From: Promethearchaeota archaeon | GTDB lineage: Archaea > Asgardarchaeota > Lokiarchaeia > Sigyniarchaeales > SOKP01 | Reading direction: 5' to 3' | Assembly (NCBI GenBank): GCA_030606485.1 | Contig: JAUWGH010000004.1 | Coordinates: 1 to 32,000 of the forward strand | DNA length: 32,000 nucleotides | Shown: piece by piece, positions 1-13,645 of the stretch | Layout of the letters: each line of letters begins with the position of its first letter | Numbering within the stretch: the first letter of the stretch is position 1 | Notes under the pieces: model-generated | The model's database searches: none | The model's input: the letters and a program-made list of their open reading frames with translations, nothing else | What the model was told of the DNA's origin: nothing | Made by a program: the position numbers and the translations under genes

Positions 1-1
1 A

Positions 2-247
2 AGCTTATATAATTTTGCTACGGAGAGATTTAAAGGTAAAGTGAATCGAAATAACAACAAGAATATAATAGATTTATCAAATCAATTAATTAGAGATGAT
101 ATTAAAGAGTTATATAAATTATATTTCTATCAAGCTAATTACTATAGATTAGCATTATGGACTCGTAATATTACTATTTATAGCATTCTTTATTTGATAA
201 TTACATTTATCACACTTATAATAGTCTTTATACCAATTCAAACCTAA
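2..247 (+). CDS. 3' end of a probable membrane protein entering from outside the window
   Basis: The frame of track ORF 41..247 is open back to base 2 (SLYNFATERFKGKV...). Hydrophobic C-terminal segment ITIYSILYLIITFITLIIVFIP. Confidence 0.4.
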   Translation, partial: SLYNFATERFKGKVNRNNNKNIIDLSNQLIRDDIKELYKLYFYQANYYRLALWTRNITIYSILYLIITFITLIIVFIPIQT

Positions 248-568
248 ATTTATTTCAATTTATTGTTTTTGCACAAGAATTATTATTTTTAATTAATGAG
301 AAAGTAAATCAATCCTACCATTTTTAAACCGACTTATCCCAATCTAAACTATGGTGTATCTGATTTTTAAGAAGAAAAGAGTTGTTATGATTTGGTATGA
401 AAATTATTTTCCATCAGTTGTAATCAAATTGATTACAGCTGAATAATCGTTTTTGGGTGGATTATATAAATTAAAGATGCTAAAAATTCAGTTGAGAAAT
501 TAAATTTCTTCTTAAAAAAATATTAAATTAAATAAAAATTATAAATATTACAATTTAAATTAAAAAAA

Positions 569-754
569 ATGATAAATAAAAAAATGATTACACGTAAAAC
601 TCCTTCAAAAGGAATATCGATGATGAAAGTTTTATTGGAAGAACGAATATTTGATGAATTATTTAAGGATAATATTGATTATATTATTAGTAAGATACCT
701 CTTGATGAACAATATATTCCTTTTGGTGAGATTATAACTATTAAAAAGAAATAG
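569..754 (+). CDS. small hypothetical protein (may be a fragment)
   Basis: 61-aa ORF, no recognisable motif, very AT-rich context. Confidence 0.25.
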   Translation: MINKKMITRKTPSKGISMMKVLLEERIFDELFKDNIDYIISKIPLDEQYIPFGEIITIKKK

Positions 755-896
755 ACAATCTTTCCCCACCTATGTGGATGATATGCTAAAAAATATCAAT
801 ATAAGAGATTTAAATCGGGTGACAACTTATCACTCGAAATAAAATATATTACAATTGATTTGATTCAATTCATGAAAAGTGTGAATTGAAAATCTA

Positions 897-1130
897 ATGA
901 TTATCTTAAATACTTCAATTCTTTACGGTATGATATCAATTGTTGATACATTATTAATAATGCCATTTTCTTACTTTTCAGAATCAATAAATAACCTCCA
1001 AGTAATTTACTTTATTCTGTTATTCTTACCCATTCTATTTTATGGAGTAAAAAAATTTCAAATTAGAAAACGTATTAAAAGTTTTCAAAAAGAACAAGCG
1101 ATTAAATTAAAAAGTCAAAATAATAATTAA
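897..1130 (+). CDS. small hypothetical membrane protein
   Basis: Two hydrophobic stretches then a Lys/Arg-rich tail. Its stop overlaps the next ATG (TAATG) at 1130. Confidence 0.35.
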   Translation: MIILNTSILYGMISIVDTLLIMPFSYFSESINNLQVIYFILLFLPILFYGVKKFQIRKRIKSFQKEQAIKLKSQNNN

Positions 1131-1620
1131 TGCCATTTTTTTGTAGTAATTTTTATTTGGAATATACCGATTTAATAGTATCTTTTAATTACGGATTAAA
1201 AAATCTTAAAGTGAGAACATTGATCGAAAAAGAATTCGGGTTTATCTATTTAGAAAAGAATGAAATTGCATATTATATAGCTAATATATGGAAAGGCGAA
1301 TTGTTTATTCAGAATTGTAAAAATGAAAAATATTCTGAAGTCGACATTAAAAACTTCCATCGTGAGTTGTGGAAATTAATTAACAGAAATTGGGATGGGA
1401 AAAGTGCATTTCGCTTAACTTGAAAAGGAAAAAAAACAGATCCAATTCTTTCACAAGTTTGTAATAAAACTGGTATTTGGTATGAGGATTTACCGAAAGA
1501 ATTCTCAGTATTCCGCCCTAAAAGTTATTCAATTGAATGGAGAAAACAACAACATCCCTGTAAAGTTCATAAAAATAATCAAGACAATTTCAATTGTTTT
1601 AAAAATATTGGAGAACCGTA
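1130..1620 (+). pseudogene. hypothetical protein, possibly interrupted after codon 97
   Basis: 97-aa ORF 1130..1423. Protein-like sequence continues in frame past the TGA (KGKKTDPILSQVCNKTGIWYEDLPKEILSIPP) and then in a shifted frame (RPKSYSIEWRKQQHPCKVH...). Confidence 0.3.
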
Positions 1621-1646
1621 AAAATTAAGAATATTAAATTTAACAT

Positions 1647-1883
1647 TCATATATCGCAATCTTCTAATATTTTGTTGATGTCTTTATCTTGTAGGAATTC
1701 TCTCGCGTCTGTATAGCGATACACCCCAAATTTTCCAAGTATCTTTTTTATCCGTCTATTAAGAGTGTTATATGAAATCTTATATTCGGACAAAAGCTCT
1801 TTAATTGTCTTCCAGTTCTTTATATCGTTTAAAAATTTCTTAACTTCTTTTTTTTTTCTCATTTTTACCTCGTAGGAAGGCAT
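1647..1883 (-). CDS. stand-alone HTH-like protein, paralog of the C-terminal domain of the GIY-YIG endonuclease at 3002..3898
   Basis: Ungapped alignment KFLNDIK...FLQDKDINKILEDCDI vs KFLEDIK...FLQDKDIDEIMEEIDK gives 30/63 identities. An identical 19-mer is at 1681-1699 and 3036-3054. An in-frame TAG lies immediately upstream of the ATG. Confidence 0.7.
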   Translation of the reverse strand: MPSYEVKMRKKKEVKKFLNDIKNWKTIKELLSEYKISYNTLNRRIKKILGKFGVYRYTDAREFLQDKDINKILEDCDI

Positions 1884-2048
1884 CTAATATGGATTAGACT
1901 AAGAAAAATGTGCGAACATCAAAAAATTTAGCCAAAAAATTAGTGATGTAAATTTTGAATCCTATACTATACTAAAATACGATGATTTCATTCAATTATT
2001 TGATAAATGGTATCCATATAAATTTTAGTTATATATTTTTTCTTTATT

Positions 2049-2711
2049 TTAAGGTATTTTATATTTTAAACTATGCCTATCGGCAATTGTTTGTAATGCT
2101 TCAAAAACGATATTCGATGTTTTTTCTGTTAGAAACTCCCTTGCTTTTTCATCTGTTCTTTCTATTGAAATGGAATGAAGTCCAAAATATGTAGTAAATA
2201 AAATTTTAATTGTTATATTTGGTTTAATACGAATATAAATTTCATAATCTCCAGAACCCATCCCTTGTTTTTCATCAAAAAATAAGTCTTCATTCCTTAT
2301 TTTTTCCCATCCGTAATAAACAATATCTATATCGAGAAGTTCCTTTTTATATTCACTTAATAAAAGTATAGAAGGTAATGGTTCATTTTGTACCTCGGAT
2401 GGAATTGAACTTTTAGGATATTTTAAGCCAAATTTACAAATTTCATTTAAAGAGTCTAAACATTTTTGATAAATTTCATGTTTTTCTCTTTCTTTTTTAT
2501 AATTTTCAAATTGTTTCATTACAAATGGCATGAAAACAGCTGAAATTATAGCTGAAAGTATAAGAAAGTTATCAAAAAAATCCTTAACTTCAAGATATAT
2601 CTCTCGATAAAAAAAGGCAACAAAAATAAAATAAAAATCCAATATCAAGAATGTAGATAACACAAAAAGTAGGATTAATAAAATCAAATACTCCTTATGA
2701 TGCATTTTCAT
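2049..2711 (-). CDS. hypothetical membrane-anchored protein (about 2 N-terminal TM helices plus a soluble domain)
   Basis: 220-aa ORF with hydrophobic segments LILLILLFVLSTFLILDFYFIFVAFF and FLILSAIISAVFMPFVM followed by a charged globular region. Confidence 0.7.
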   Translation of the reverse strand: MKMHHKEYLILLILLFVLSTFLILDFYFIFVAFFYREIYLEVKDFFDNFLILSAIISAVFMPFVMKQFENYKKEREKHEIYQKCLDSLNEICKFGLKYPKSSIPSEVQNEPLPSILLLSEYKKELLDIDIVYYGWEKIRNEDLFFDEKQGMGSGDYEIYIRIKPNITIKILFTTYFGLHSISIERTDEKAREFLTEKTSNIVFEALQTIADRHSLKYKIP

Positions 2712-3001
2712 TTTAAAAAATTTCTATTATTTTTACCTTTTAATGATTGAATTAATTATATAAAAGTTACATCGTTTTAGTCTGTTTCTGTTATCAAAAA
2801 TTTCATATTAAAGACAAATTTTGTCGGAAAGATTTTTCTTCCTGATAAAACATATCTAATTTGTTTTAAAATTATACTAAAATAGTATTAAAAAATTGAA
2901 AAATTCCTACAAAAAATAGTTTAAATGGTTAATTTCACAATGAAAATATCATCATAATATTATCAATTATCTTATCTTTCAAATCCGAAATTCAATAATA
3001 C

Positions 3002-3898
3002 TCATTTGTCGATTTCCTCCATTATTTCATCAATATCTTTATCTTGTAGGAATTTTTTCGCTTCTGTTGGATTATTTATACCGTATTTTCCAAGGATTTC
3101 CTTCACTCTCAATCTCACTGTATCTTCCGACATCTTGTATCTAACCGCAAGAGAACTTGTTTTCAGCCCAGATTTTATATCCTCTAAAAATTTACCAATA
3201 TCAGGTATTTTTATCTTTCTCCTCCTGTTTGATTCAGCAATTATTGTAGCAATTCGTTTTCTATATTTTGGATCTTTAAATTTTTCATCCATTATCTTTT
3301 TCATTGTCTCACTCCCCTTTGCTCTAAGAACCGGGTCTTTATTTCCCCGTATTAATTTATCCCTCATTCTTTTTCGAAATTCCGGATCTTCTTTGCGTAA
3401 CTTTTCTACTTCTTCGCGACCTTTTCGATTAAAATTTATCATCCATTTTCTATACTCAGCATCTTCTTGATATTTCCGTTTTAATGTATCTCTGATTTTC
3501 TTTATAACTTCTTCACTCTGACTTCCGACTCCTCCATCTGTCATATTGTATCCTTTCTCTCTATGTGTTGAATCGTACTCTTTAATCCAATGTTTTTCCT
3601 TTTCATCTAATTCTTCTTGTGAATACGCTACGTCTATCTGTTCCAATTTCCAAACAGATTCATCATACTTTGCTATAGCATTATTTAAACGAGAACCAAA
3701 TATCTTTTTATCAGGTTGTTCTATTCTAAGTCTTTTAACTGCCCTTCCCTCTGTAAGATGCTCAAGCCATCTTTTTCTTATTGGTTTTACCGTTTCACCA
3801 ATATATACCTTTCTGGTAAAGGTATTAGTTGCTAAATAAATGTATCCGAAAGGTTTTTTTGTAGAATTTTGGTTGTTCACACAATTTTTTTTACACAT
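3002..3898 (-). CDS. GIY-YIG family endonuclease (homing-endonuclease-like) with NUMOD3-like helical repeats and a C-terminal HTH-like domain
   Basis: GYIY(18-21)...YIG(32-34), R43, H47, E101 and GYN(116-118) match the GIY-YIG core. The middle has SEEVIKKIRDTLK and DAEYRK/DPEFRK/DPVLRAK/DPKYRK repeats. SD-like GAGGTG lies upstream. Confidence 0.9.
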   Translation of the reverse strand: MCKKNCVNNQNSTKKPFGYIYLATNTFTRKVYIGETVKPIRKRWLEHLTEGRAVKRLRIEQPDKKIFGSRLNNAIAKYDESVWKLEQIDVAYSQEELDEKEKHWIKEYDSTHREKGYNMTDGGVGSQSEEVIKKIRDTLKRKYQEDAEYRKWMINFNRKGREEVEKLRKEDPEFRKRMRDKLIRGNKDPVLRAKGSETMKKIMDEKFKDPKYRKRIATIIAESNRRRKIKIPDIGKFLEDIKSGLKTSSLAVRYKMSEDTVRLRVKEILGKYGINNPTEAKKFLQDKDIDEIMEEIDK

Positions 3899-3905
3899 TT
3901 TTTTG

Positions 3906-4167
3906 CATACACCTCACATTGTTTTAATTTCATGGGGCGTTGTGAGGTTTTCGACATTTATGATTTTAGGGGGGATTCTTTTTACCCCCCGACCTCGCAA
4001 GAGGGAAAATCATTAAATAGTTCGAAAACTTGCCCCATGTGAGAAATTAAAACAAAAGTAGGGTGTAATATAAGATGTGTAATTAACATTATGAACAACC
4101 CATAACATAAAATAACCTACAGGATAACTATTTTAGCAACATACACCTTACCCGAAGGGTAAAAGTG
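3906..4167 (-). ncRNA. putative structured RNA / 5' leader of the GIY-YIG gene
   Basis: Nested inverted repeats: 3919-3931/4043-4055 (13 bp perfect), 3931-3938/4032-4039 (8 bp), 3947-3954/4022-4029 (8 bp), 3956-3967/4006-4018 (12 bp, one bulge). They close two hairpins, 3969-3990 (G6/C6) and 3993-4004 (CCTC-GCAA-GAGG). Further hairpins at 4086-4108, 4109-4134 and 4148-4162. Function and transcribed strand are inferred. Confidence 0.65.
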
Positions 4168-4435
4168 AAAGAAAAAGCTTTTAAAAAAAATAACAAAACT
4201 TAAAATGACATCTAAAAAGTATTAAGGCGAAAAACTAGACAGAGAACTAAATCCACGATAATTGAAAAAATCCTTATTTTTAAGTATCTATGTTACATGG
4301 TATATGCATCTAATCTATCTATTTATTTTATAATTTATACGACAATAAACAAAAAACAAAGATTTTCTCAAATTTTTTTAAAAATTTTTTATTATAAAAC
4401 CTATCAAATAAATAATTTATAAGAACTGAGAACCG

Positions 4436-4954
4436 ATGAATGAAGAATTAGAAAAATTATCCAAGGAGGAATTGATTAAATATATTGAAGATATCTCTAA
4501 GAACTGGATCTCGATAGATGGTACATGGTTCCAGACGGTGGAAAATGACCTAGGACTTGAAAAAGCCATGGAGCTTAATATTAAACAATGGACAAGATTT
4601 ACGGTTATTGAAGCTAAGAGAATTATGAAAAGATTTAATATTCCTCCAAATGGAGGAATTCCTGCGTTGATTAAAGCTTTAAAATTCAGGGTTTATGCGA
4701 ACATAAACATACAAGAAACCATTGAAATCTCTGAAAATCGCTGTGTATTTCGAATGAACAATTGCCGCGTTCAATATGCAAGGAAACAAAGAGGGTTGCC
4801 TGATTTTCCTTGTAAAGGAGTTGGCTTGGTTGAATATGGTCTATTCGCTAAAACAATAGATCCACGCATAGAAACTAATTGCATTTGTTGTCCGCCAGAT
4901 CCTCATCCGGAAGAATATTTTTGTGCTTGGGAATTTATTCTAAAGGATAAATAA
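4436..4954 (+). CDS. DUF6125-like protein (V4R/HNOB-like small-ligand-binding fold)
   Basis: W-x-x-x-DG-x-WF motif (NWISIDGTWF) and C-terminal Cys pattern CRVQ...FPCK...CICCPPDPHPEEYFCAWEF. Confidence 0.75.
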   Translation: MNEELEKLSKEELIKYIEDISKNWISIDGTWFQTVENDLGLEKAMELNIKQWTRFTVIEAKRIMKRFNIPPNGGIPALIKALKFRVYANINIQETIEISENRCVFRMNNCRVQYARKQRGLPDFPCKGVGLVEYGLFAKTIDPRIETNCICCPPDPHPEEYFCAWEFILKDK

Positions 4955-5115
4955 TTAAATAAAAAAAAGGATATTATAGAGAAAAATTTACAAGAATAAA
5001 CTTAATATTAAACAATGGAAAAGATTTACAGTTATTGAAGCTAAGAGAATTATGAAAAGCTTTAATATTCCTCCAAACGGAGGTATTCCAGCGTTGATTA
5101 AAGGTTTAAAATTCA
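4574..5115 (+). repeat. 115-bp direct repeat (4574-4688 and 5001-5115)
   Basis: Ungapped, 7 mismatches in 115 nt. The second copy is an internal piece of the DUF6125-like gene with no start codon. Confidence 0.95.
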
Positions 5116-5570
5116 ATTTTTATGAAAAACCACGTACTCTAATGCCACTTTTATCCCTAAAAGAACGTTAAAACAGTTTTAATGAAATTGAACTAGGTTT
5201 TAATAAAAATTTGGTCTTAGAAGAGGCGAACCGATGTTTAAGATGTGATTTACGTTTTGAAATCTCACCTGTAGTGTTTCCCCCTCAAAAATGGTTGGAA
5301 TTAACCGATGAGAATATTCAAACTGTGCCTGAACTTGAAGGTGCGATTCAAGTTTTAAATGAGAATCAAGTGATAATCCTCATACAAGGAACCGCTAATT
5401 TACGTTTAACATTGGAAGAACAATTAAAGAGCAATACTAAGGCTTGTTACTTTAATTATTATGAAGACCCTATGTACACAAAAAGGGAGAGTGAATTACT
5501 TCAACAATTTATACAAGAATTTGGGAGATTCCCTGAGGGTAATGAAGATCTTGACGATGATCTATTTTAA
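5001..5570 (+). pseudogene. chimeric remnant: DUF6125 fragment fused in frame to the C-terminus of a GltD/SudA-like flavoprotein with a degenerate GIY-YIG-like tail
   Basis: One frame reads LNIKQW...GLKF-NFYEKPRTLMPLLSLKER*NSFNEIELGF...EEANRCLRCD, with an in-frame TAA at 5169-5171. ER..F.E.ELGF...EA.RCL.C is the typical GltD-family C-terminus. Track ORF 5211..5570 is its 3' part. Confidence 0.7.
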
Positions 5571-5580
5571 ATTTGGCTGA

Positions 5581-5607
5581 ATAATAAAAAAAATAATAAA
5601 AAAAAAA
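5581..5607 (-). terminator. oligo-T tract (two copies of ATAAT-A8/9 on the + strand) downstream of 5612..6235
   Basis: T-rich run on the minus strand just after the stop, between convergent ORFs, as in archaeal intrinsic terminators. Confidence 0.35.
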
Positions 5608-5611
5608 GATT

Positions 5612-6235
5612 TTAAACTTTTTCTCCAAATTTACCCGATATCCATAATATTATGAGAATTACTAATGGAATACCAAAAATTATCGAAACCCAAACAAATA
5701 CGGTTAGATAACCGTAGATGAAATAACTAAATGATAGACTACCAAATGGGGTAAGCCAATTGCCATCAATAAACACATAAATACAAACTCCAATAAATAA
5801 CAAAAATGAAAAACCGCCACCGCCACCTTCATACTTTTTTCCTCTCAATCTCTCCCATTTCTTCTTCTCCTCTTTCGATTCCTTATCTCTCTTTTTAAGC
5901 TCTTCTTTATCATCTTCCGATAAAATTTTAAACCAATATCCTCCGATTAAAATGCCAAAGAATGCTACTGTTGGAAGTACAACGAGTAAAAATTCCCATA
6001 AAATCAATAATAATACCCATACAATGGCAGTCCCCATAGAAAATTCGTCAAACGTCCATGCACCGTAACCTCCAACCTCTGAAGCTGGAATATACAATAA
6101 TAAGACTAAAATTCCTCCGATTATAGCTCCAACCACCGCAGCTCCACAGATTATAGTAATTACCCAATGTTTTCTTATGAATCGTTTCCAAAACATTTCA
6201 TCTAAGACTTTCATACTCTCTTCTTCACTACTCAT
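5612..6235 (-). CDS. hypothetical integral membrane protein (about 4 TM)
   Basis: Four hydrophobic segments, a central charged loop (KEELKKRDKESKEEKKK) and a Gly run. SD-like GAGGT upstream. Confidence 0.85.
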   Translation of the reverse strand: MSSEEESMKVLDEMFWKRFIRKHWVITIICGAAVVGAIIGGILVLLLYIPASEVGGYGAWTFDEFSMGTAIVWVLLLILWEFLLVVLPTVAFFGILIGGYWFKILSEDDKEELKKRDKESKEEKKKWERLRGKKYEGGGGGFSFLLFIGVCIYVFIDGNWLTPFGSLSFSYFIYGYLTVFVWVSIIFGIPLVILIILWISGKFGEKV

Positions 6236-6256
6236 AAATATTTCTACCTCGAAATA

Positions 6257-6378
6257 TATTTTGTTTTTAAATTAGATTATAATTTTATTTTTAAATTAAA
6301 TACGGATCTAAATATAAAGCTAATCCTTATATTTCATTTATTTGATCAAAAAATTAAAGGAGTGATATATTTTAATAG
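6257..6378 (-). promoter_or_regulatory. duplicated promoter-like segment, copy 1
   Basis: 23-nt block 6257-6279 is identical to 9746-9768. 74-nt block 6305-6378 matches 9792-9865 with 4 mismatches. TATA-like TTTATAT on the minus strand. Confidence 0.75.
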
Positions 6379-6537
6379 GCAGAAGTATAGCGATCATCAT
6401 AACCTCATTATGAAGTAATATTATGATTTACTTTCTGCTAGGAGATCTAGAGCAATTGCAGGTTTCGATCGATATGCAATTAAGAATAGGTAAGCAACGA
6501 GACCAATGAATTCAAATTATACCCGGATTGGTTTCAT

Positions 6538-7539
6538 CTAAATATAGTCTAAAGTTATTACTACATTTCCCTTTTTATGCCCTTTATCGACATAGCTATG
6601 AGCCTCGACAATTTTTTCTAAGGGATAGCGTCTATCTATGACCGATTTAAGCTTCCCCGCCTCAATAAGCTCTTTGAGGAAAATTAAATCTTCTTTTTTT
6701 TCACTTGCTCCCCCACCTATTACTTTTATTGAAGACCAAAGGCCTCGAACAAGATGTGACACCTTCATGACAGCTTCAAGATAGAATCCTTTTTTCTTTA
6801 GCGATCTTTTACAATCTGAAAACGAACTCTTGCCTACCGTGTCAAAAATAATATCATAGATCTCACCGCTTTTGCTAAAATCCTCTTTAGTGTAATCAAT
6901 TACCTTATCGGCTCCCAGAGATTTCACCATTTCTAAATTCGTGGTACTGCATACTCCGGTAACTTCTGCCCCAAAGTGCTTGGCAAGCTGTACCGCAAAA
7001 GTACCATTACTTCCAGAAGCTCCATAGATAAGGACTTTTTGTCCGCTTTGGATATTTCCTTTTCTAAGAAAATGCAATGCTGTAAGCCCCCCAATAGGAA
7101 CGGCGGCGGCCTCCTCATGGGTCATATTGGTCGGTTTTAGCGCTACCACGTTAGCTCCAAACATACCTGTGGATAAAGGCTCTTCAGGTATACATATGTA
7201 CTCGGCATAAGAACCAAAACTCAACCCAGTGGTAGTTCCGAAAATTTGGTCACCTTTCCTAAATAGTTTTACATCTTTGCCTATTGATTCAATTTCCCCG
7301 GCTAACTCCATCCCAAGTATAGTTTTTTTTGGTTTTCTGAAACCCAACATTATTCGCCCGAAGAGCCGAAGCAAGAAAGGGTAATTTTTCATGCCACTTC
7401 GAAGAGCCACGTCCCCTGCTGTTGCTGTTGTCGCGTGTATTTTTACCAGTATTTCATTGTCCTTGGGAGTAGGTTTTTCTACTTCTTTGAGCTGAAGAAC
7501 GTCGGGGGGTCCATATTTTTGACAAACTATTGCTTTCAT
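6538..7539 (-). CDS. MDR-superfamily NAD(P)-dependent oxidoreductase, Zn-independent quinone-reductase-like
   Basis: [12 protein letters not shown] start, ATTATAGD (no catalytic Zn Cys), GMELAGE, GASGSNG nucleotide-binding loop, GHKKGNVVI end. Confidence 0.93.
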
Positions 7540-7671
7540 TTGTGTAATTATTTATCACCATTTTTTAATATTTTTTATTTAATAACACTAATTTTGTCAC
7601 AGTATTAAATAGTTATAGAGACCAATATTTGTTTTTGTAAAACGAAAGAAAAAATGAAATTTGGATAAAAA

Positions 7672-8655
7672 TTAAGATTTTGTACTATTTACCACAGTTA
7701 TTACTATATTTCCCGTTTTCTGCCCTGTTTCGACATATCTATGAGCCTCGGGAATTTGTTCCAACGGATAGCGTCTATCTATGACCGATTTTATCTTCCC
7801 CTCCTCAATAAGCTCTTTGAGGAAAATTAAATCCTCAGTCTTTGGGTTTGAGCTCCCAGCTATTACTTTCATTGAGTTCCTTTGGCCTCGAACAACATGT
7901 GACAGCTTAGGGTTGGCTAAAAGAAGGAGCCCATTTTTCTTAAGCGATCTTTTATAATCTGAAAACGAACTCTTGCCTACTACATCAAATATAACATCAT
8001 AGGTCTCTCCGCTTTTGGTAAAATCCTCTTTAGTGTAATCTATTACTTTCTCGGCTCCCAGAGATTTCATCATTTCTAAACTCGTGGGATTACCTACACC
8101 GATTACTTCTGCCCCATAGTACTGGGCAAGTTGAATCGCAAAAGTACCTATAGTTCCAGAAGCACCACTGATAAGAACTTTTTGACCGCTCTGGATATTT
8201 CCTTTTCTAAGAAAATGCAATGCCTCAAGTCCCCCAATAGGAACGGCGGCGGCTTCTTCATAGGTCATATTGGTCGGTTTTATTGCCAACACCCCCATCT
8301 TACGTTCTTCACGCAGACATACGTACTCGGCATAAGATCCAAAACTCATCCCGGTAGTTCCAAAAACTTGGTCACCTTTCTTAAATAGATTTACATCTTT
8401 ACCGACTGATTCAACTTCCCCGGCTAGTTCCATCCCTAGTATGTTTTTTCTTGGTCTTCTGAAACCAAATCCTAATCGCATGAGGGATCTTAACAAGAAA
8501 GAGAATTTGAGACCTCGAAGTTCACAGTCCCCTGCTGTTACTGTTGTCGCATGTATTCTTATCAGCACTTCATTGTCCTTGGGAGTAGGGTTTTCCACCT
8601 CTTTGAGCTGAAGGACATCCGGTGATCCGTATTTTGTGCATACAATTGCTTTCAT
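7672..8655 (-). CDS. MDR-superfamily NAD(P)-dependent oxidoreductase, Zn-independent quinone-reductase-like
   Basis: [26 protein letters not shown] overlap with the upstream paralog at 8652-8655. Confidence 0.93.
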
Positions 8656-9584
8656 AAGTATTCCGCCACAATTATTACCACATTTCCCTTTTTGTGCCCT
8701 TTTTCAACGTACTTATGAGCCTCGGCAATCTGTTCCAACGGATAGCGTCTATCTATGACCGATTTTATCTTTCCCGCCTCAATAAGCTCTTTGAGGAAGA
8801 TTAGATCTTCAGTCTTTACGTCGCCTCCGCCTCCGGAATCCCTTAAAACGTTAAGATAGATTCCTGTCTTCTTTAGAGACTTTTTACCTCGTGAAGACGA
8901 AATCTTGCCTACAGCGTCAAAGATAACATCATATGTCTCACCGCTTTGGGTAAAATCCTCTTGAGTGTAATCAATTACCTTATCGGCTCCTATAGATCTC
9001 ACCATTTCTAAATTAGTTGTACTGCAAACCCCGGTGACCTCTGCCCCGAATGATTTGGCAAGTTGTACCGCATAGGTACCTACACTTCCAGAAGCGCCAT
9101 AGATCAGAACTTTTTGTCCACTCTGGATATTTGCCTTTCTAAGAGTACACAATGCTGTAATTCCCCCAGAAGCAACACCAGCAGCGGCTTCTTCAAAGGT
9201 CATATTGGTCGGTTTTAGTGCCAGCATCCCGTCTTCAGGCAGACATTTGTACTCGGCATAACCACCAAAATCCGAGAAAAAGGTAGATGCAAAAACTTGG
9301 TCACCTTTCTTGAACAGCTTTACATCTTTGCCTACTGATTCAATTTCCCCAGCTAGCTCCATCCCTAGTATAGCTCTCTTTGGTTTTCTAAGACCTAAAT
9401 ATATTCGCGCGAAGATCCATTGCCAGCGAGGAACATCGAAACTTCGCATTCTCACGTCCCCTGCTGTTACTGTTGTCGCATATACTTTTACCAGTACTTC
9501 ATTGTCCTTGGGAGTAGACTTTTCTACCTCTTTGAGCTGAAGAACATCCGGTGGTCCGTATTTTGTATATACAATCGCTTTCAT
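8652..9584 (-). CDS. MDR-superfamily NAD(P)-dependent oxidoreductase, Zn-independent quinone-reductase-like
   Basis: [33 protein letters not shown]. Confidence 0.93.
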
Positions 9585-9733
9585 AAGTATTCCTCCTTAT
9601 TTGATTTCACTTCCTCTATGGCTTTCTTGCCCGCATAAGTCTTTCTCAAATCCTTGACTTCAATAGCATTCGGATTATCGGAACCAAATATTAATCCTTT
9701 GCTAGTCTTGTCTATATTTTTTGATTTTGACAT
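9581..9733 (-). pseudogene. 50-aa ORF resembling the N-terminal stump of an ABC-transporter ATPase
   Basis: Not in the track. Reads [61 protein letters not shown] is the typical first strands of an ABC ATPase but there is no Walker A. The stop overlaps the MDR start (ATGA). Confidence 0.6.
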
Positions 9734-9745
9734 TGTTTCTATATC

Positions 9746-9865
9746 TATTTTGTTTTTAAATTAGATTAGAATTTGTTTAAAAGAGAATATAGATCTATAT
9801 ATAAAACTAATCCTTATATTTTATTTATTTGATCAAAGAATTAAAGGAGTGATATATTTTAATAG
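9746..9865 (-). promoter_or_regulatory. duplicated promoter-like segment, copy 2
   Basis: Direct repeat of 6257-6378. TATA-like TTTTATATA on the minus strand about 65 nt upstream of the ATG at 9733. Confidence 0.75.
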
Positions 9866-9962
9866 CAGATTTTTATGAAACTAATAATAATAATTATCTA
9901 AGAAATAATATTGTCATTTTTTAAAGATTAAAAAAGAATTGTTATTTATCTTAGATTTTTTT

Positions 9963-10187
9963 TTAAAATCTTTTTTCTTCTTGTAATTTTTTATTCTCTA
10001 GTCTCTTTCTAACAACACAATAAACTTCACCGTTAAACATAGTCTTATAACATGAATTACAGCTAATACAATGTGCTGGCGAGATATCACCACTCTTCCA
10101 AAGGTTTGGAAGGTCTGGTTCGTGTATAAGAGGTTTACTCATCGATATAAAATCTGTATAATTTTCGCCTTCAGGAAATTTTTTCAC
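9963..10187 (-). pseudogene. C-terminal stump of an NADH:flavin oxidoreductase (Old Yellow Enzyme family)
   Basis: DFISMSKPLIHEPDL...CISCNSC resembles the D.IS..RP...EP.L and CxxCxxC end of OYE-family enzymes. The rest of the barrel is absent and ilvE ends 9 nt upstream. Confidence 0.7.
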
Positions 10188-10196
10188 AGAAAAAAT

Positions 10197-11273
10197 TTAA
10201 TCTTTGGTTGCTTTTTGAATCCAACCAAACTTATCTTCTATTTTTCCCCATTGAATTCCAGTTATTGTATCATATAGTTTTTGAGTCAGTTTTCCAACTT
10301 TAAAATCGTTAATTGTATAATCTTTACCTTTATAGCCTAATAATCCAACAGGTGTAATTACTGCTGCAGTACCACTTCCAAATGCCTCATCTAATTTACC
10401 ATTCTCAAATGCATTAATAACCTCATCTATGGCTAGATTTCTCTCTTCAACTTTTATTCCTTCGGATTTACATAACTGTATCACAGAATCTCTTGTTATA
10501 CCAGGTAAGATTGTTCCTGTTAGAGGTGAAGTGATTACAACTCCATCTATCACAAAAAACATATTCATTGTACCCACTTCTTCTACATATTTTCTCTCTT
10601 GGGCGTCTAGCCATAATACTTGTGCATATCCCTCTTTTTCCGCTTCTTTAGTTGCAAATAAACTAGCTGCATAATTTCCACAAGTTTTTGCTTGCCCAAC
10701 ACCACCATCTGCTGCTCGGATATATTTATCTTCGACCTTAATTTTAACTGGATTAAAACCCGTAGCATAATAGGCTCCGACGGGACTTAATATTATGTAT
10801 AATATATATTGACCACTTGGATGCACACCAAGAAACGGTTCTGAAGCTATATAGGTTGGTCTTATATAGAGAGATGTTCCTTCTGAATGGGGAACCCAAT
10901 GTTTTTCAATAGTGATTAATTCTTTAAGAGCATCAAGGACAAAATCGGGATCAAACCTTGCCATTACCATCCGGTCTGCAGACATTTGAAGTCTCTCGAA
11001 ATTTTTTTCTGGTCTAAATAAATTTATTCCGTCTTCTGTTCTATAAGCTTTCATTCCCTCAAATATTGCCTGTCCGTAATGGAGAACACATGCAGCAGGA
11101 TCAAGAACTAATGGCTCATATTTTTTAATTTCTGCATCATACCAGCCTTTTCCTTCATCATAATACATTATAAACATATGATCCGTGAAAATTTTACCAA
11201 AACCTAGGGTACTCTCATCTTCTGGGAGTTTTCTTCTTTCATTTTCTGGAATTGTATTAATTTTTAATTCCAT
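10197..11273 (-). CDS. ilvE: branched-chain amino acid aminotransferase
   Basis: LHYGQAIFEGMKAY, LYIRP, AKTCGNY (PLP Lys), EEVGTMN, ILPGITR, FGSGTAAVITP. Confidence 0.97.
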   Translation of the reverse strand: MELKINTIPENERRKLPEDESTLGFGKIFTDHMFIMYYDEGKGWYDAEIKKYEPLVLDPAACVLHYGQAIFEGMKAYRTEDGINLFRPEKNFERLQMSADRMVMARFDPDFVLDALKELITIEKHWVPHSEGTSLYIRPTYIASEPFLGVHPSGQYILYIILSPVGAYYATGFNPVKIKVEDKYIRAADGGVGQAKTCGNYAASLFATKEAEKEGYAQVLWLDAQERKYVEEVGTMNMFFVIDGVVITSPLTGTILPGITRDSVIQLCKSEGIKVEERNLAIDEVINAFENGKLDEAFGSGTAAVITPVGLLGYKGKDYTINDFKVGKLTQKLYDTITGIQWGKIEDKFGWIQKATKD

Positions 11274-11456
11274 ATTCTTTTATTTCCTTTAAATTTTAAT
11301 TTTTATAAAACTTATACGCCTTGTTTAAAAAATTATTGCTATGATAATATAAAAATTTTGATAAGGGAATAACGTTTTGTGGGCTATTTTTCCCAAATTA
11401 AATTAAAACTATAAGAATTACATATTGAATAATTTCAAAAGACACCCTTCCTAATT

Positions 11457-13232
11457 CTATTGGATTGGATTTTTTGGAATAGTAAAAGTAAAGGTGCTAC
11501 CCTCTCCTAATTTACTAGTAAAATACATCTCACCTCCATGTAGATTTACTAGTTTTTTAGCAAGAGTTAATCCTAATCCTGTGCCAAGAGTTGAAGATAC
11601 GTAGAGAGATTCAACTCTTTTATATTCTTTAAAAATTAATTCATAATTTTCTTTCGCAATTCCAATACCGGTATCAATTACATTAAATTTCCAACGATTA
11701 TTATCCTCCATAATTTGAAGTGTTATCCCTCCTTTTATTGTGTATTTTATTGCATTGCTTAGTAAATTGTAGAAGATTTCCTTCAATCTTACAAGATCAG
11801 CGTATATACTTTTTGGCTCATTTAAGCCTTCTACTTGAAAATATAGACTTTTTTTTGAATATAAGGGTTTTAGAACAGATTTAATTTCATTTATCAGAGC
11901 ATTCAATTCAAAGTTTTGTACATTCAATTTTAATTCTCCAGATTCTATCTTTGATATTTCTAAGATATGATCTATAAGTTCTAGTAAATGATCGGAGGAG
12001 GATTTAATATCACTGAGAAAATCAATTTGATCTTCGTTTAAATTACCATAAGATTCGTCTAAAAGTAAATCGGAGAAACCTATAATAGCATTCAACGGTG
12101 TTCTTAAATCATGAGACATAGAGGATAGAAAATTAGTTTTAAATTGCGATGCTTTTATAATATTATCGATATATATCTTTTGTTTTGTTATATCCCTTCC
12201 AATATAAATAGTTCCTCTTAGTTCACTATTTTCATCTCTAAATAATGAGATAGATAAAGAAATAGGTATTTTTTTTCCATTATTTGTTTTAAAAAATGTT
12301 TCTATGGTAGGATTAGAATCCATACTCCCATAATTTACAAGTAATTGTTTTTTATGATTAGAAATTTCATCATTTTCTTCTGAAAATAGAATATCAACAA
12401 GATTATCAATAAGTTCATTTTCTTGATAATTAGAAAGCTTTAATGTTGTTTGATTAACTGCTTTTATTTCATCTTTAAGGTTAGTTAGAATTACCACATC
12501 TGATAAACTATTTGTTATGTTTTCTGCAACTGTCATAAAATCCAAAATAAATAATTTAAATTTCCAAATTGCATAACCTATTAAAATACTAGTTAGAGTA
12601 AAGCTGGTTGTACCGAATTCCGGAATATCTGACTCAAATATTACTGCCAAAACAAAATCAAAAATAAGATAAATAATTAGAGAAAAAAATAATCCAATTG
12701 AAAAATATTTTGCTTGTAACTTTTTTCTATGATCTGTAGTAATATAATAACAACGTACACATAAAATTATTGATAAAACTGGTAAAAGAATAACCCATAA
12801 TAAGTAAAAGTTTAGTAAGAATGAATTTTCTTGATATAAATAGGTCCAGCCCCAATTCTTTTTCTGAGGTCCCACTAAAATAAGAGGAGTTGCGAAATCT
12901 AAACAAATCAAAATACCAGTTGGGATATAGATTAACGGAAATAATATTTTTTTACTTTTATTTTTGGATATCTTTGAAAAAATAAGGCAAAAATGAAATA
13001 GAAAACTAAGTGCTAAAGGAAATAATAACGTCAATTTTAACCAGAAACAAGCTGTGGCAAAACTTTCTGCATGTCTCATAGAAAATTCTGAATAACACAC
13101 AGAACTATAAGATAAACAATATAACATGAATAAAATATTCAATGGATTTTTAGTATTTTTTGCAAATATAAAAGCACCCATAAATAAAGCAATAACAGCA
13201 GATATCAAAGGTAAAATAGTAAAAATATTCAT
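11457..13232 (-). CDS. membrane sensor histidine kinase (7TM N-terminus, PAS, HisKA, HATPase)
   Basis: About 7 hydrophobic segments, PAS-like region ending IGRDIT, H-box SHDLRTPLN, N-box NLLSNAIKYT, DTGIGI, GTGLGL. Confidence 0.95.
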   Translation of the reverse strand: MNIFTILPLISAVIALFMGAFIFAKNTKNPLNILFMLYCLSYSSVCYSEFSMRHAESFATACFWLKLTLLFPLALSFLFHFCLIFSKISKNKSKKILFPLIYIPTGILICLDFATPLILVGPQKKNWGWTYLYQENSFLLNFYLLWVILLPVLSIILCVRCYYITTDHRKKLQAKYFSIGLFFSLIIYLIFDFVLAVIFESDIPEFGTTSFTLTSILIGYAIWKFKLFILDFMTVAENITNSLSDVVILTNLKDEIKAVNQTTLKLSNYQENELIDNLVDILFSEENDEISNHKKQLLVNYGSMDSNPTIETFFKTNNGKKIPISLSISLFRDENSELRGTIYIGRDITKQKIYIDNIIKASQFKTNFLSSMSHDLRTPLNAIIGFSDLLLDESYGNLNEDQIDFLSDIKSSSDHLLELIDHILEISKIESGELKLNVQNFELNALINEIKSVLKPLYSKKSLYFQVEGLNEPKSIYADLVRLKEIFYNLLSNAIKYTIKGGITLQIMEDNNRWKFNVIDTGIGIAKENYELIFKEYKRVESLYVSSTLGTGLGLTLAKKLVNLHGGEMYFTSKLGEGSTFTFTIPKNPIQ

Positions 13233-13459
13233 TTTAAAAATCTATAGGTTTTATTTTTTTGTTTGTTTTAAATTTTTGTCTTGTAATTGAAACTAAATGG
13301 TTTAAACTAAAATTTACAATAAGAAAATGAAAACTTATGCATTTAAATCTACTTATTAGGAATTTCTCTATTCAATTGAAAAATTTCAAAAATTTTATTA
13401 CTTTTAATTAACATTTTTTTAAATCAAATATTTTTAATTTTAGGATTTGTGATATAACA

Positions 13460-13645
13460 ATGAGAAAAGTAAAATGTAAAGGTTGCGGTAAAAAATTAGA
13501 TATAAAAGATGCAGATAGTTATGGTAAATGTATGGATTGTGGAGAAATTTTTTGCAAGAAATGTTTAAGATCATGTCCTGATTGTGGTGATTCTCCATTT
13601 TGTGCTGATTGTATGGAGGCACATTTAGCTGATCATGATTTTTAA
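13460..13645 (+). CDS. Cys/His-rich multi-zinc microprotein
   Basis: Five CxxC pairs plus HxxxH in 61 aa. It fills the gap between two minus-strand genes. Confidence 0.8.
   Translation: MRKVKCKGCGKKLDIKDADSYGKCMDCGEIFCKKCLRSCPDCGDSPFCADCMEAHLADHDF

Follow-up and report, generated by a model that had tools for sequence, protein, structure and literature searches.

A structured leader element before a free-standing GIY-YIG endonuclease gene in Lokiarchaeia and its possible role as a translational mask

Contig C2 of a Promethearchaeota archaeon (class Lokiarchaeia; JAUWGH010000004.1; genome of 3.75 Mb on 13 contigs) carries, within its first 32 kb (positions 1 to 32,000, the stretch that we analyzed and refer to as the window), a minus-strand gene for a GIY-YIG nuclease that is directly preceded by a structured non-coding element of 175 nt. 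Together with a promoter-like block, these make up a self-contained, sporadically distributed cassette of ~1.4 kb (~2957-4360). The element folds as a rod of six helices that closes a three-way junction and ends in the Shine-Dalgarno (SD) sequence and start codon of the nuclease gene; its helices covary, and it recurs before related nucleases of a single clade, with which it has co-diverged. On balance, and with modest confidence, we favor the explanation that the element masks translation in cis, as a much larger archaeal counterpart of the hairpins that control the ribosome-binding sites of homing endonuclease genes in phage T4. The phage logic of masking a nuclease at its ribosome-binding site would then be carried out by a far larger and far more conserved RNA. 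The element would also represent a new structured RNA family, absent from Rfam 15 and specific to a homing-endonuclease-like clade of the Lokiarchaeia, the archaeal lineage closest to eukaryotes.

A covarying element ending in the ribosome-binding site

The initial annotation of this DNA described four parts that lie in order on the minus strand within 2.5 kb, and all of them are present: open reading frames (ORFs) at 1647-1883, 2049-2711, and 3002-3898, the last being the nuclease gene, plus a structured non-coding region upstream of it (Table 1). About 540 nt of non-coding DNA separate the nuclease gene from a divergent DUF6125 gene that starts at 4436. The large RNA structure predicted in this interval was confirmed by folding and by covariation. 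The sequence from 3899 to 4200 folded at -83.8 kcal/mol, as against -57.7 +/- 4.4 kcal/mol for dinucleotide shuffles (z = -5.9), and none of 100 shuffles equaled it. The apical half of helix H4, the hairpin H5, and the junction are nearly invariant across all members. Weaker conservation reaches upstream of the core to about 4360, and includes a hairpin (4116-4123) followed by a T-rich run, a motif common to both sequence groups and the orphan copies described below. No Rfam 15 family reached its gathering score in the window, a search of 3700-4450 at E <= 10 returned noise only (TeloSII_ncR30 and ST7-OT3), and no tRNA was found at the locus. A coding reading of the rod (plus-strand ORFs at 3840-4016 and 3869-4042, and a minus-strand upstream ORF of 26 codons) was rejected because loop and insertion lengths vary between members by 4, 6, and 7 nt, and, for the 26-codon ORF, because its AUG is AUA in locus L052 and its frame is stopped in L048. 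The proteins of L050 and L052 were probably over-extended by gene callers that started them inside the element.

At least 11 further contigs, with varied neighborhoods, have the element 5′ of a related nuclease gene. It lies directly before the start codon in loci L042, L041, and L044, whose proteins are 96%, 84%, and 54% identical to that of the window, respectively. At L043 (protein 53% identical) the contig holds only the last 74 nt of the element, which are 100% identical. At L048 (42%) the element is present and the neighboring genes are different, and L050 and L052 carry more divergent forms. A covariance model (R1) built from four loci scored 70-213 bits on the loci of nuclease homologs; taken together, our covariance models returned 13 loci with 11 distinct sequences, at 47-213 bits, and can be used for annotating further copies of the leader. 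A search pattern drawn from the invariant junction led to six JGI metagenome contigs and one GTDB genome (Loki_b32), and in five of the contigs found in this way the element is followed immediately by a GIY-YIG ORF. A stricter first pattern had no match in three sequence collections, and the looser junction pattern had none in IMG/VR.

Across the 11 distinct sequences and 56 pairs, 92.8% of cells were standard pairs, and 22 pairs were changed on both sides, compared with 2-6 when the 3′ partners were slid by 1-3 columns. This alignment was fitted to the model, and hence RNAalifold was also run on a plain MAFFT alignment of the second sequence group (group 2). On these seven sequences alone, which are ~60% identical to group 1, the group that includes the window, it returned the same architecture as in group 1. 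The helices are rewritten whole between the groups, with the internal loops kept in place; inner H4, for example, reads GUUUUCGA/UCGAAAAC in the window and AGAGGG.UGUCC/GGACA.CCCUCU in group 2. Overall, the compensatory changes cover ~35 bp in three helices.

Conservation along the cassette peaks in the leader core, which is the best-conserved segment, with 95-98% identity where the coding sequence has 53-91%. Relative to the window, the core and coding sequence are 95.3% and 88-91% identical in L041 (other non-coding sequence, including region 4071-4299, is at 57-76%), 97.7% and 53-75% in L044, and 79.7% and 50-69% in L048. The core differs from that of L041 at 4.7% of positions, while the synonymous divergence (dS) of the adjacent gene is 0.28. 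Further upstream, the block at 4300-4360 is 100% identical in L042, 80% in L041, and 72% in L048, and identity falls to 37-43% in 4361-4436; we infer from its sequence that the block is promoter-like. Similarity between copies starts near 4360 and stops 36-90 nt past the stop codon (2912-2966), with individual 3′ break points at 2966 in L041, at 2912 in L042, and at 2960 in a nuclease fragment on contig C5 of the same genome. At the limits of the cassette, 2957-2971 and 4257-4271 form an inverted repeat of 9 bp, which was set aside: it is not kept in L041 or L048, and DNA so rich in A and T would be expected to contain such a repeat by chance.

In every intact member, the element ends in GAGGUGU, followed after 8-9 nt by the AUG or GUG that starts the nuclease gene. 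The SD forms the 3′ strand of the basal helix, P1, and pairs with ACACC or CCUC, which immediately precedes H2 on the 5′ side; an independent prediction for group 2 gave a P1 of 9 bp. Partition-function folding of the window leader gave the SD an unpaired probability of 0.18 (82% paired) in transcripts starting at 4300, 4170, or 4075, and of 0.63 in a transcript starting at 4050, in which the anti-SD is gone and the rod is intact. Masking of the SD by RNA structure, the feature by which T4-type control is recognized, is predicted in silico for both groups. A local anti-SD "switch" (3941-3948) was also considered; it is real in the window, but is not a feature of the family, because its CCUCACA is missing in L048 and is realized differently in group 2.

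The nuclease, its clade, and the mobility of the cassette

The 298-aa protein is, as judged from sequence and structural modeling, an I-TevI-type GIY-YIG endonuclease. It matched the Pfam GIY-YIG family (PF01541; 2e-7, 31.6 bits against a cut-off of 22.6) and a PHROG homing-endonuclease family (1e-21). In keeping with the active nuclease predicted in the initial annotation, a phmmer alignment to 1MK0/1LN0 keeps IY, YIG, RW..H, E..WIKE, and GYN, and the predicted catalytic Tyr, Tyr, Arg, His, Glu, and Asn positions are kept relative to I-TevI, in columns that are invariant in 18 homologs. An AlphaFold2 model had a predicted local distance difference test (pLDDT) score of 81, and Foldseek placed its N-terminal domain on 1LN0 with a template-modeling (TM) score of 0.70 and a probability of 1.0. 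The predicted domain layout comprises a catalytic domain (residues about 18-120), a helical linker (about 129-227), modeled as five long helices, and a LuxR-type helix-turn-helix (HTH) domain (about 234-297). The linker consists of four basic repeats, seen in the DNA as 25-nt repeats, that are NUMOD3-like by eye; Pfam does not call them, and gave neither a NUMOD nor a zinc-finger match in the nuclease. In the model, the C-terminal four-helix HTH resembles the NarL, LiaR, and DosR domains (TM about 0.56-0.61), with a weak Pfam GerE match (E = 0.04); the score for TIGR01453 was under its cut-off. Like I-TevI and the Seg-type endonucleases, the protein has its GIY-YIG domain at the N-terminus, with every catalytic residue, then a long linker and a modeled HTH at the C-terminus; its gene resembles theirs in its sporadic distribution, mosaic recombination, and decayed copies. 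Unlike I-TevI, it is associated here with no intron or phage, no zinc finger was noticed in its linker, which has four helical basic repeats, and its HTH is LuxR/NarL-like in the model. The dN/dS ratio was 0.27 relative to the 84%-identical homolog at L041, and the nuclease gene is therefore under purifying selection. A viral origin was considered and rejected, as IMG/VR gave only generic GIY-YIG domains at <= 42% identity, and PADLOC gave no system match, its only hit being a weak "homing endonuclease".

In a maximum-likelihood tree of catalytic domains, all 12 RNA-bearing nucleases fell in one clade (support 96/97), with the group 1 and group 2 RNAs on separate protein sub-clades. Comparison of the neighborhoods of homologs, which the initial annotation had recommended, showed that homologs within the clade share this upstream element; it is co-oriented with the GIY-YIG ORF, and immediately 5′ of it, in 12 loci whose neighbors differ. 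All other Lokiarchaeial GIY-YIG paralogs were without it. One of these is an 822-aa paralog in the same genome (L010 31-2499; contig C6, about 11014-13482) with ~480 residues of K/E-rich, low-complexity N-terminal sequence followed by GIY-YIG, NUMOD-like repeats, and HTH. It has a near-identical orthologue in the same-genus genome G001, and similar forms of 400-800 aa occur in many relatives, none with the leader RNA. Same-clade leaderless nucleases at L045, L046, and L047 (6001-6879) lie in a conserved NUDIX/GIY-YIG/tyrosine-phosphatase synteny and look stably inherited; the L046 and L047 records are annotated as Hodarchaeota. We also noted that group 2 cassettes have a conserved basic ORF of 78-80 aa just upstream of the leader (L052 4509-4745; L063 693-935; L065, L066, and L067), which is absent from the window. 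Its N-terminal region is ribbon-helix-helix-like by eye, and it had no match in Pfam, NCBIfam, or PADLOC.

A survey of 151 genomes of relatives recovered the leader RNA in 2, and a class-wide sample that overlaps the first also gave 2 of 151; BLAST searches with the leader found nothing in 60 relatives. A presence/absence difference at the locus, which the initial annotation had proposed to look for, is present: G001, which is 89-93% identical to the window from 4436 rightwards, lacks everything to the left of that position (no counterpart of 1-4435). The flanking gene of G001 has only a distant paralog elsewhere in the window genome, and the window begins at a contig end. At the G001 site (L060, G001:C51 9767-11364), a TIR gene (PF10137, CAP12/Pycsar-type, 2e-22) overlaps a 287-aa gene of no family, and the site looks like a variable, defense-island-like hotspot.

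L041 is syntenic with the window and carries the cassette; its flanking genes have dS values of 0.58-0.81 relative to the window, compared with 0.28 for the nuclease gene; the lower value therefore points to a more recent exchange of the cassette. Other copies lie beside an E2-like gene and a UDP-glucose dehydrogenase gene (L048), or beside NACHT-LRR and OLD nuclease genes (L063). The alleles are mosaic: L044 shares with the window the leader (98%) and the 3′ end with the membrane-protein gene (94%), with a catalytic domain that is 75% identical and a linker that cannot be aligned. Orphan copies of the leader without a nuclease were found in Loki_b32 (L055/L069, NJBH01000005.1) and at L064 (3286-3436). 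One of them has GAGAUGU in place of the SD, with ~620 nt of sequence full of stop codons behind it, and the other has lost both the SD and the start codon. The absence from G001, the low dS, and the 5′ and 3′ remnants are indirect signs, read from sequence, that suggest a mobile gene of the homing-endonuclease type, and the nuclease would drive the spread of the cassette by homing. A literature search found no description of free-standing homing endonuclease cassettes, or of their control, in archaeal chromosomes. The intact cassettes, allelic mosaics, and 5′ and 3′ stumps described here provide an Asgard example of the homing-endonuclease life cycle.

A translational mask weighed against its rivals

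We hypothesize that the 175-nt core is transcribed with the nuclease gene as its 5′ leader, and would fold as a very stable rod closing the three-way junction. The basal helix would pair the SD (GAGGUG, 3910-3915) with the upstream ACACC, and in this default state the potentially toxic nuclease would be left untranslated. Translation would need an RNA with an open basal helix, which might arise by initiation of transcription within the element, by RNA processing, or by binding of a factor to the invariant junction. We infer that the leader acts as RNA, in cis and on translation, and that the mask has an opener of one of these kinds.

This proposal has a precedent in T-even phages, where hairpins that sequester the ribosome-binding site control I-TevI, I-TevII, I-TevIII, segB, and mobE (PMC2988022). 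As in those phages, an RNA structure directly upstream of a homing-endonuclease ORF is predicted to pair the SD about 8 nt before the start codon, and would keep a harmful nuclease, the GIY-YIG (or HNH) gene product of a selfish cassette, untranslated on read-through transcripts. Unlike the single local hairpins of T-even phages, the leader has ~175 nt, six helices, and a three-way junction. It also differs in forming a sequence family across many loci that is better conserved than the protein, and in residing in a Lokiarchaeial chromosome, not a phage; in T4, an internal promoter relieves the masking. Two sequences inside the element, the TATA-like CTATTTAA and, ~25-30 nt downstream of it, AGGTCGG, are invariant, with a 7-nt difference between the groups in the spacing from the TATA-like motif to the invariant block. 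As a lead only, the two may constitute a TATA box and initiator of archaeal type within the element, from which an unmasked transcript would start, as it does in T4.

Several observations weigh against a translational mask, or at least against one that does nothing else. A simple mask needs 20-40 nt, and a junctioned structure of 175 nt implies an additional function beyond masking; the invariant apical domain is conserved in paired and unpaired positions alike. When the whole 5′ arm was removed in silico, the unpaired probability of the SD was again 0.18, by way of the local CCUCACA, and no clear ON state was evident from folding. P1 has no covariation support, because the SD must stay an SD, which leaves no room for it to covary with the anti-SD. 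Sense RNA, antisense RNA, and a DNA hairpin cannot be told apart by the pairing pattern alone, and the transcription, strand, and RNA ends of the leader are presumed from DNA sequence. In addition, the clade members L045, L046, and L051 were without the element, even with a broader model and with filters off. The size and conservation of the leader hint that the junction has an extra function, for example in sensing, in protein binding, or in directing RNA processing.

An element that acts at the DNA level, with the RNA fold being secondary, seems to us unlikely. It might be an operator through which the HTH/NUMOD region of the nuclease represses its own gene as I-TevI does, an embedded promoter, or a recombination or cleavage site. 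The pairing is almost purely Watson-Crick and has no strand bias (17 sense-strand G-U cells versus 14 A-C/C-A), the reverse strand also scores with model R1 (32-41 bits), and the apical helix, with its AT-rich TATA-like motif and AGGTCGG, is invariant on both strands. Furthermore, I-TevI binds an operator upstream of its own ORF (PMC2988022), and several members of the nuclease family carry two or more HTH domains. However, compensatory changes spread over three helices with the loops kept are more usual for a folded single strand than for two protein half-sites. The element is also asymmetric, with its three-way junction and its sense and antisense scores of, for example, 213 versus 34 bits; it always ends in an SD and start codon, and the variable spacing from the TATA-like motif also counts against a DNA-level element. 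A role in trans, in which the leader or a processed piece of it would bind the nuclease and guide, activate, or neutralize it, is in our judgment rather improbable. Such an RNA would be a GIY-YIG counterpart of omega-RNA/IscB or an RNA antitoxin, and the initial annotation had drawn the analogy to HEARO/IscB. There is a likeness, in that a large, highly conserved structured RNA lies immediately 5′ of a nuclease ORF, and co-oriented with it, within a mobile unit; conservation is higher in the RNA than in the protein, the two co-diverge, and the junction is invariant, as would be expected of a protein-binding scaffold. The analogy found no support in the comparisons made, although the nuclease may bind RNA. 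The nuclease is GIY-YIG and not RuvC/HNH, no IscB-type protein, IS200/605 ends, or TnpA were found, the neighboring ORFs scanned had no transposase-family match, Rfam gave no match to HEARO or any other family, and alignments checked by eye held no hypervariable guide-like segment beside a constant scaffold. As the SD and start codon of the nuclease gene form the end of the element, a cis-acting leader fits better than HEARO/IscB. The persistence of orphan RNA copies in two genomes would suit a trans-acting RNA, as would the frequent location of cassettes among defense-type genes (TIR, OLD, NACHT, and DUF4145), but the orphans are decaying rather than maintained and no PADLOC system was matched. 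Unlike type III (ToxIN-like) toxin-antitoxin loci, the leader has no tandem repeats (3896-4300) and no T-run or terminator separates it from the ORF. The protein, in addition, has in its model the full I-TevI-kind apparatus for DNA recognition (linker repeats and HTH). A more specific version, in which a stable processed RNA binds the basic repeat/HTH region and forms a ribonucleoprotein that targets, licenses, or neutralizes the GIY-YIG nuclease, we consider very unlikely; if true, it would be the first RNA-dependent GIY-YIG system, in Asgard archaea and often lodged among defense genes.

Two further alternatives concern what belongs to the unit. The RNA is 98-100% identical before nucleases that are only 53-54% identical (L043 and L044), as might be expected if it were an independent, conserved non-coding RNA gene that serves as a landing site for interchangeable homing endonuclease genes. 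This we regard as highly improbable: an RNA present in so few of the Lokiarchaeial species genomes in either sample is not a host housekeeping RNA, it lies in unrelated gene contexts and always with a nuclease of one clade, its sub-types are distributed in line with the protein sub-clades, the SD of the nuclease gene is part of it, and its nuclease-less copies are degraded at the 3′ end. The initial annotation had instead seen a four-part module (RNA, nuclease, membrane protein, and HTH-only paralog) of a defense or addiction kind, with the caveat that linkage of the membrane protein may be incidental. The order of the four parts on one strand is as described, the nuclease gene of L044 likewise has the membrane-protein gene behind it (99% aa identity), and a nuclease 3′ fragment on contig C5 also follows a membrane-protein gene. 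Even so, a functional module of this composition is scarcely credible to us. Among 12 other loci carrying the RNA, the nuclease, or both, the membrane protein is present in one (L044) and missing from 11, and the HTH-only ORF is beside none of them. L042, which at 97.6% identity is the closest copy, departs from the window sequence at 2912, ahead of the membrane-protein gene, and the membrane proteins of the window and C5 are unrelated to each other; the caveat about linkage was justified. The HTH ORF itself is a gene stump that shares its downstream flank with a full-length allele, and the C5 stump has no start codon. Of the explanations considered, the translational mask is the one that we retain as a working hypothesis.

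One other known arrangement resembles the cassette. The GIR1 lariat-capping ribozyme of twin-ribozyme group I introns is a junctioned RNA of ~180-190 nt that lies directly 5′ of a homing endonuclease ORF and acts on the mRNA 5′ end. Unlike GIR1, the leader has no group I intron context, as Rfam gave no intron match and no host gene is interrupted; intergenic DNA flanks the cassette, and DUF6125 is encoded on the opposite strand. It also has no Rfam match and no sign of catalysis, and both the organism and the endonuclease family differ.

Neighboring features and remnants

The 220-aa ORF has N-terminal hydrophobic helices and no family match. The 78-aa ORF was described in the initial annotation as a catalytically empty, HTH-only paralog, and it is indeed paralogous to the C-terminus of the nuclease, to which it is related by a direct repeat (75% identical over 72 nt; 46% aa identity). 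It is not, however, a designed paralog, but the displaced 3′ end of another allele: its last 37 codons and the next 104 nt (window positions 1757-1543) match the 3′ end and downstream flank of the nuclease gene at L043 with 87.5% identity. Metagenome contigs from four DNA runs were compared with window positions 1-7000, and one joint was informative. In this contig 1878 is joined to 3080 with 27 other letters between, which gives a full-length gene with the HTH of the 78-aa ORF. An SD-like GAGGU precedes an internal AUG at 1862 in the stump, which may therefore be expressed. A second remnant, at C5:5050-5238 (L011 1507-1689), is a nuclease 3′ fragment that abuts the stop codon of a gene for a 278-aa membrane protein. 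The fragment combines the two HTH types of the window in a chimera and retains the 3′ flank of the cassette.

Table 1. Positions of the cassette, its leader helices, and adjacent ORFs in the window.
Feature	Position	Strand	Remarks
Promoter-like block, AT-rich, conserved	4300..4360	minus	5′ limit of the sequence common to cassettes in other contexts
Upstream leader region, moderate conservation	4071..4299	minus	Small hairpins at 4150-4160 and 4116-4123
Structured leader core, 175 nt	3896..4070	minus	Limits set by covariance model
P1	4062-4066 with 3909-3913	minus	
H2	4043-4055 with 3919-3931	minus	
H3	4032-4038 with 3932-3938	minus	
H4	about 4006-4031 with 3945-3967	minus	
H5, apical hairpin	4001-4004 with 3993-3996	minus	
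H6, apical hairpin	3985-3990 with 3969-3974	minus	
SD (GAGGUG)	3910-3915	minus	
AUG of nuclease	3896-3898	minus	
GIY-YIG nuclease, 298 aa	3002..3898	minus	Pfam, I-TevI alignment, AlphaFold2
Cassette 3′ flank, conserved	2957..3001	minus	Similarity between copies breaks at 2912-2966
Membrane-protein ORF, 220 aa, outside the unit	2049..2711	minus	Recurs in L044 only
Displaced 3′ end of a nuclease allele	1543..1883	minus	78-aa HTH ORF (1647-1883) and downstream flank (1543-1646)

To the right of the cassette, part of the interior of the DUF6125 gene is repeated at 5001-5128, shortly after the end of the intact gene (4436-4954). This partial copy, with 91% identity to G001 and 84% to L041, probably marks a rearrangement scar. 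Further on, three tandem MDR/zinc-ADH-like genes (6383-9748) have no counterpart in G001. They are bracketed in the window by a segment of ~120 bp that is single-copy in G001, where 5584-6383 and 9748-11420 of the window map to overlapping coordinates; the difference reflects either insertion of the genes or their deletion through recombination of the bracketing segments.

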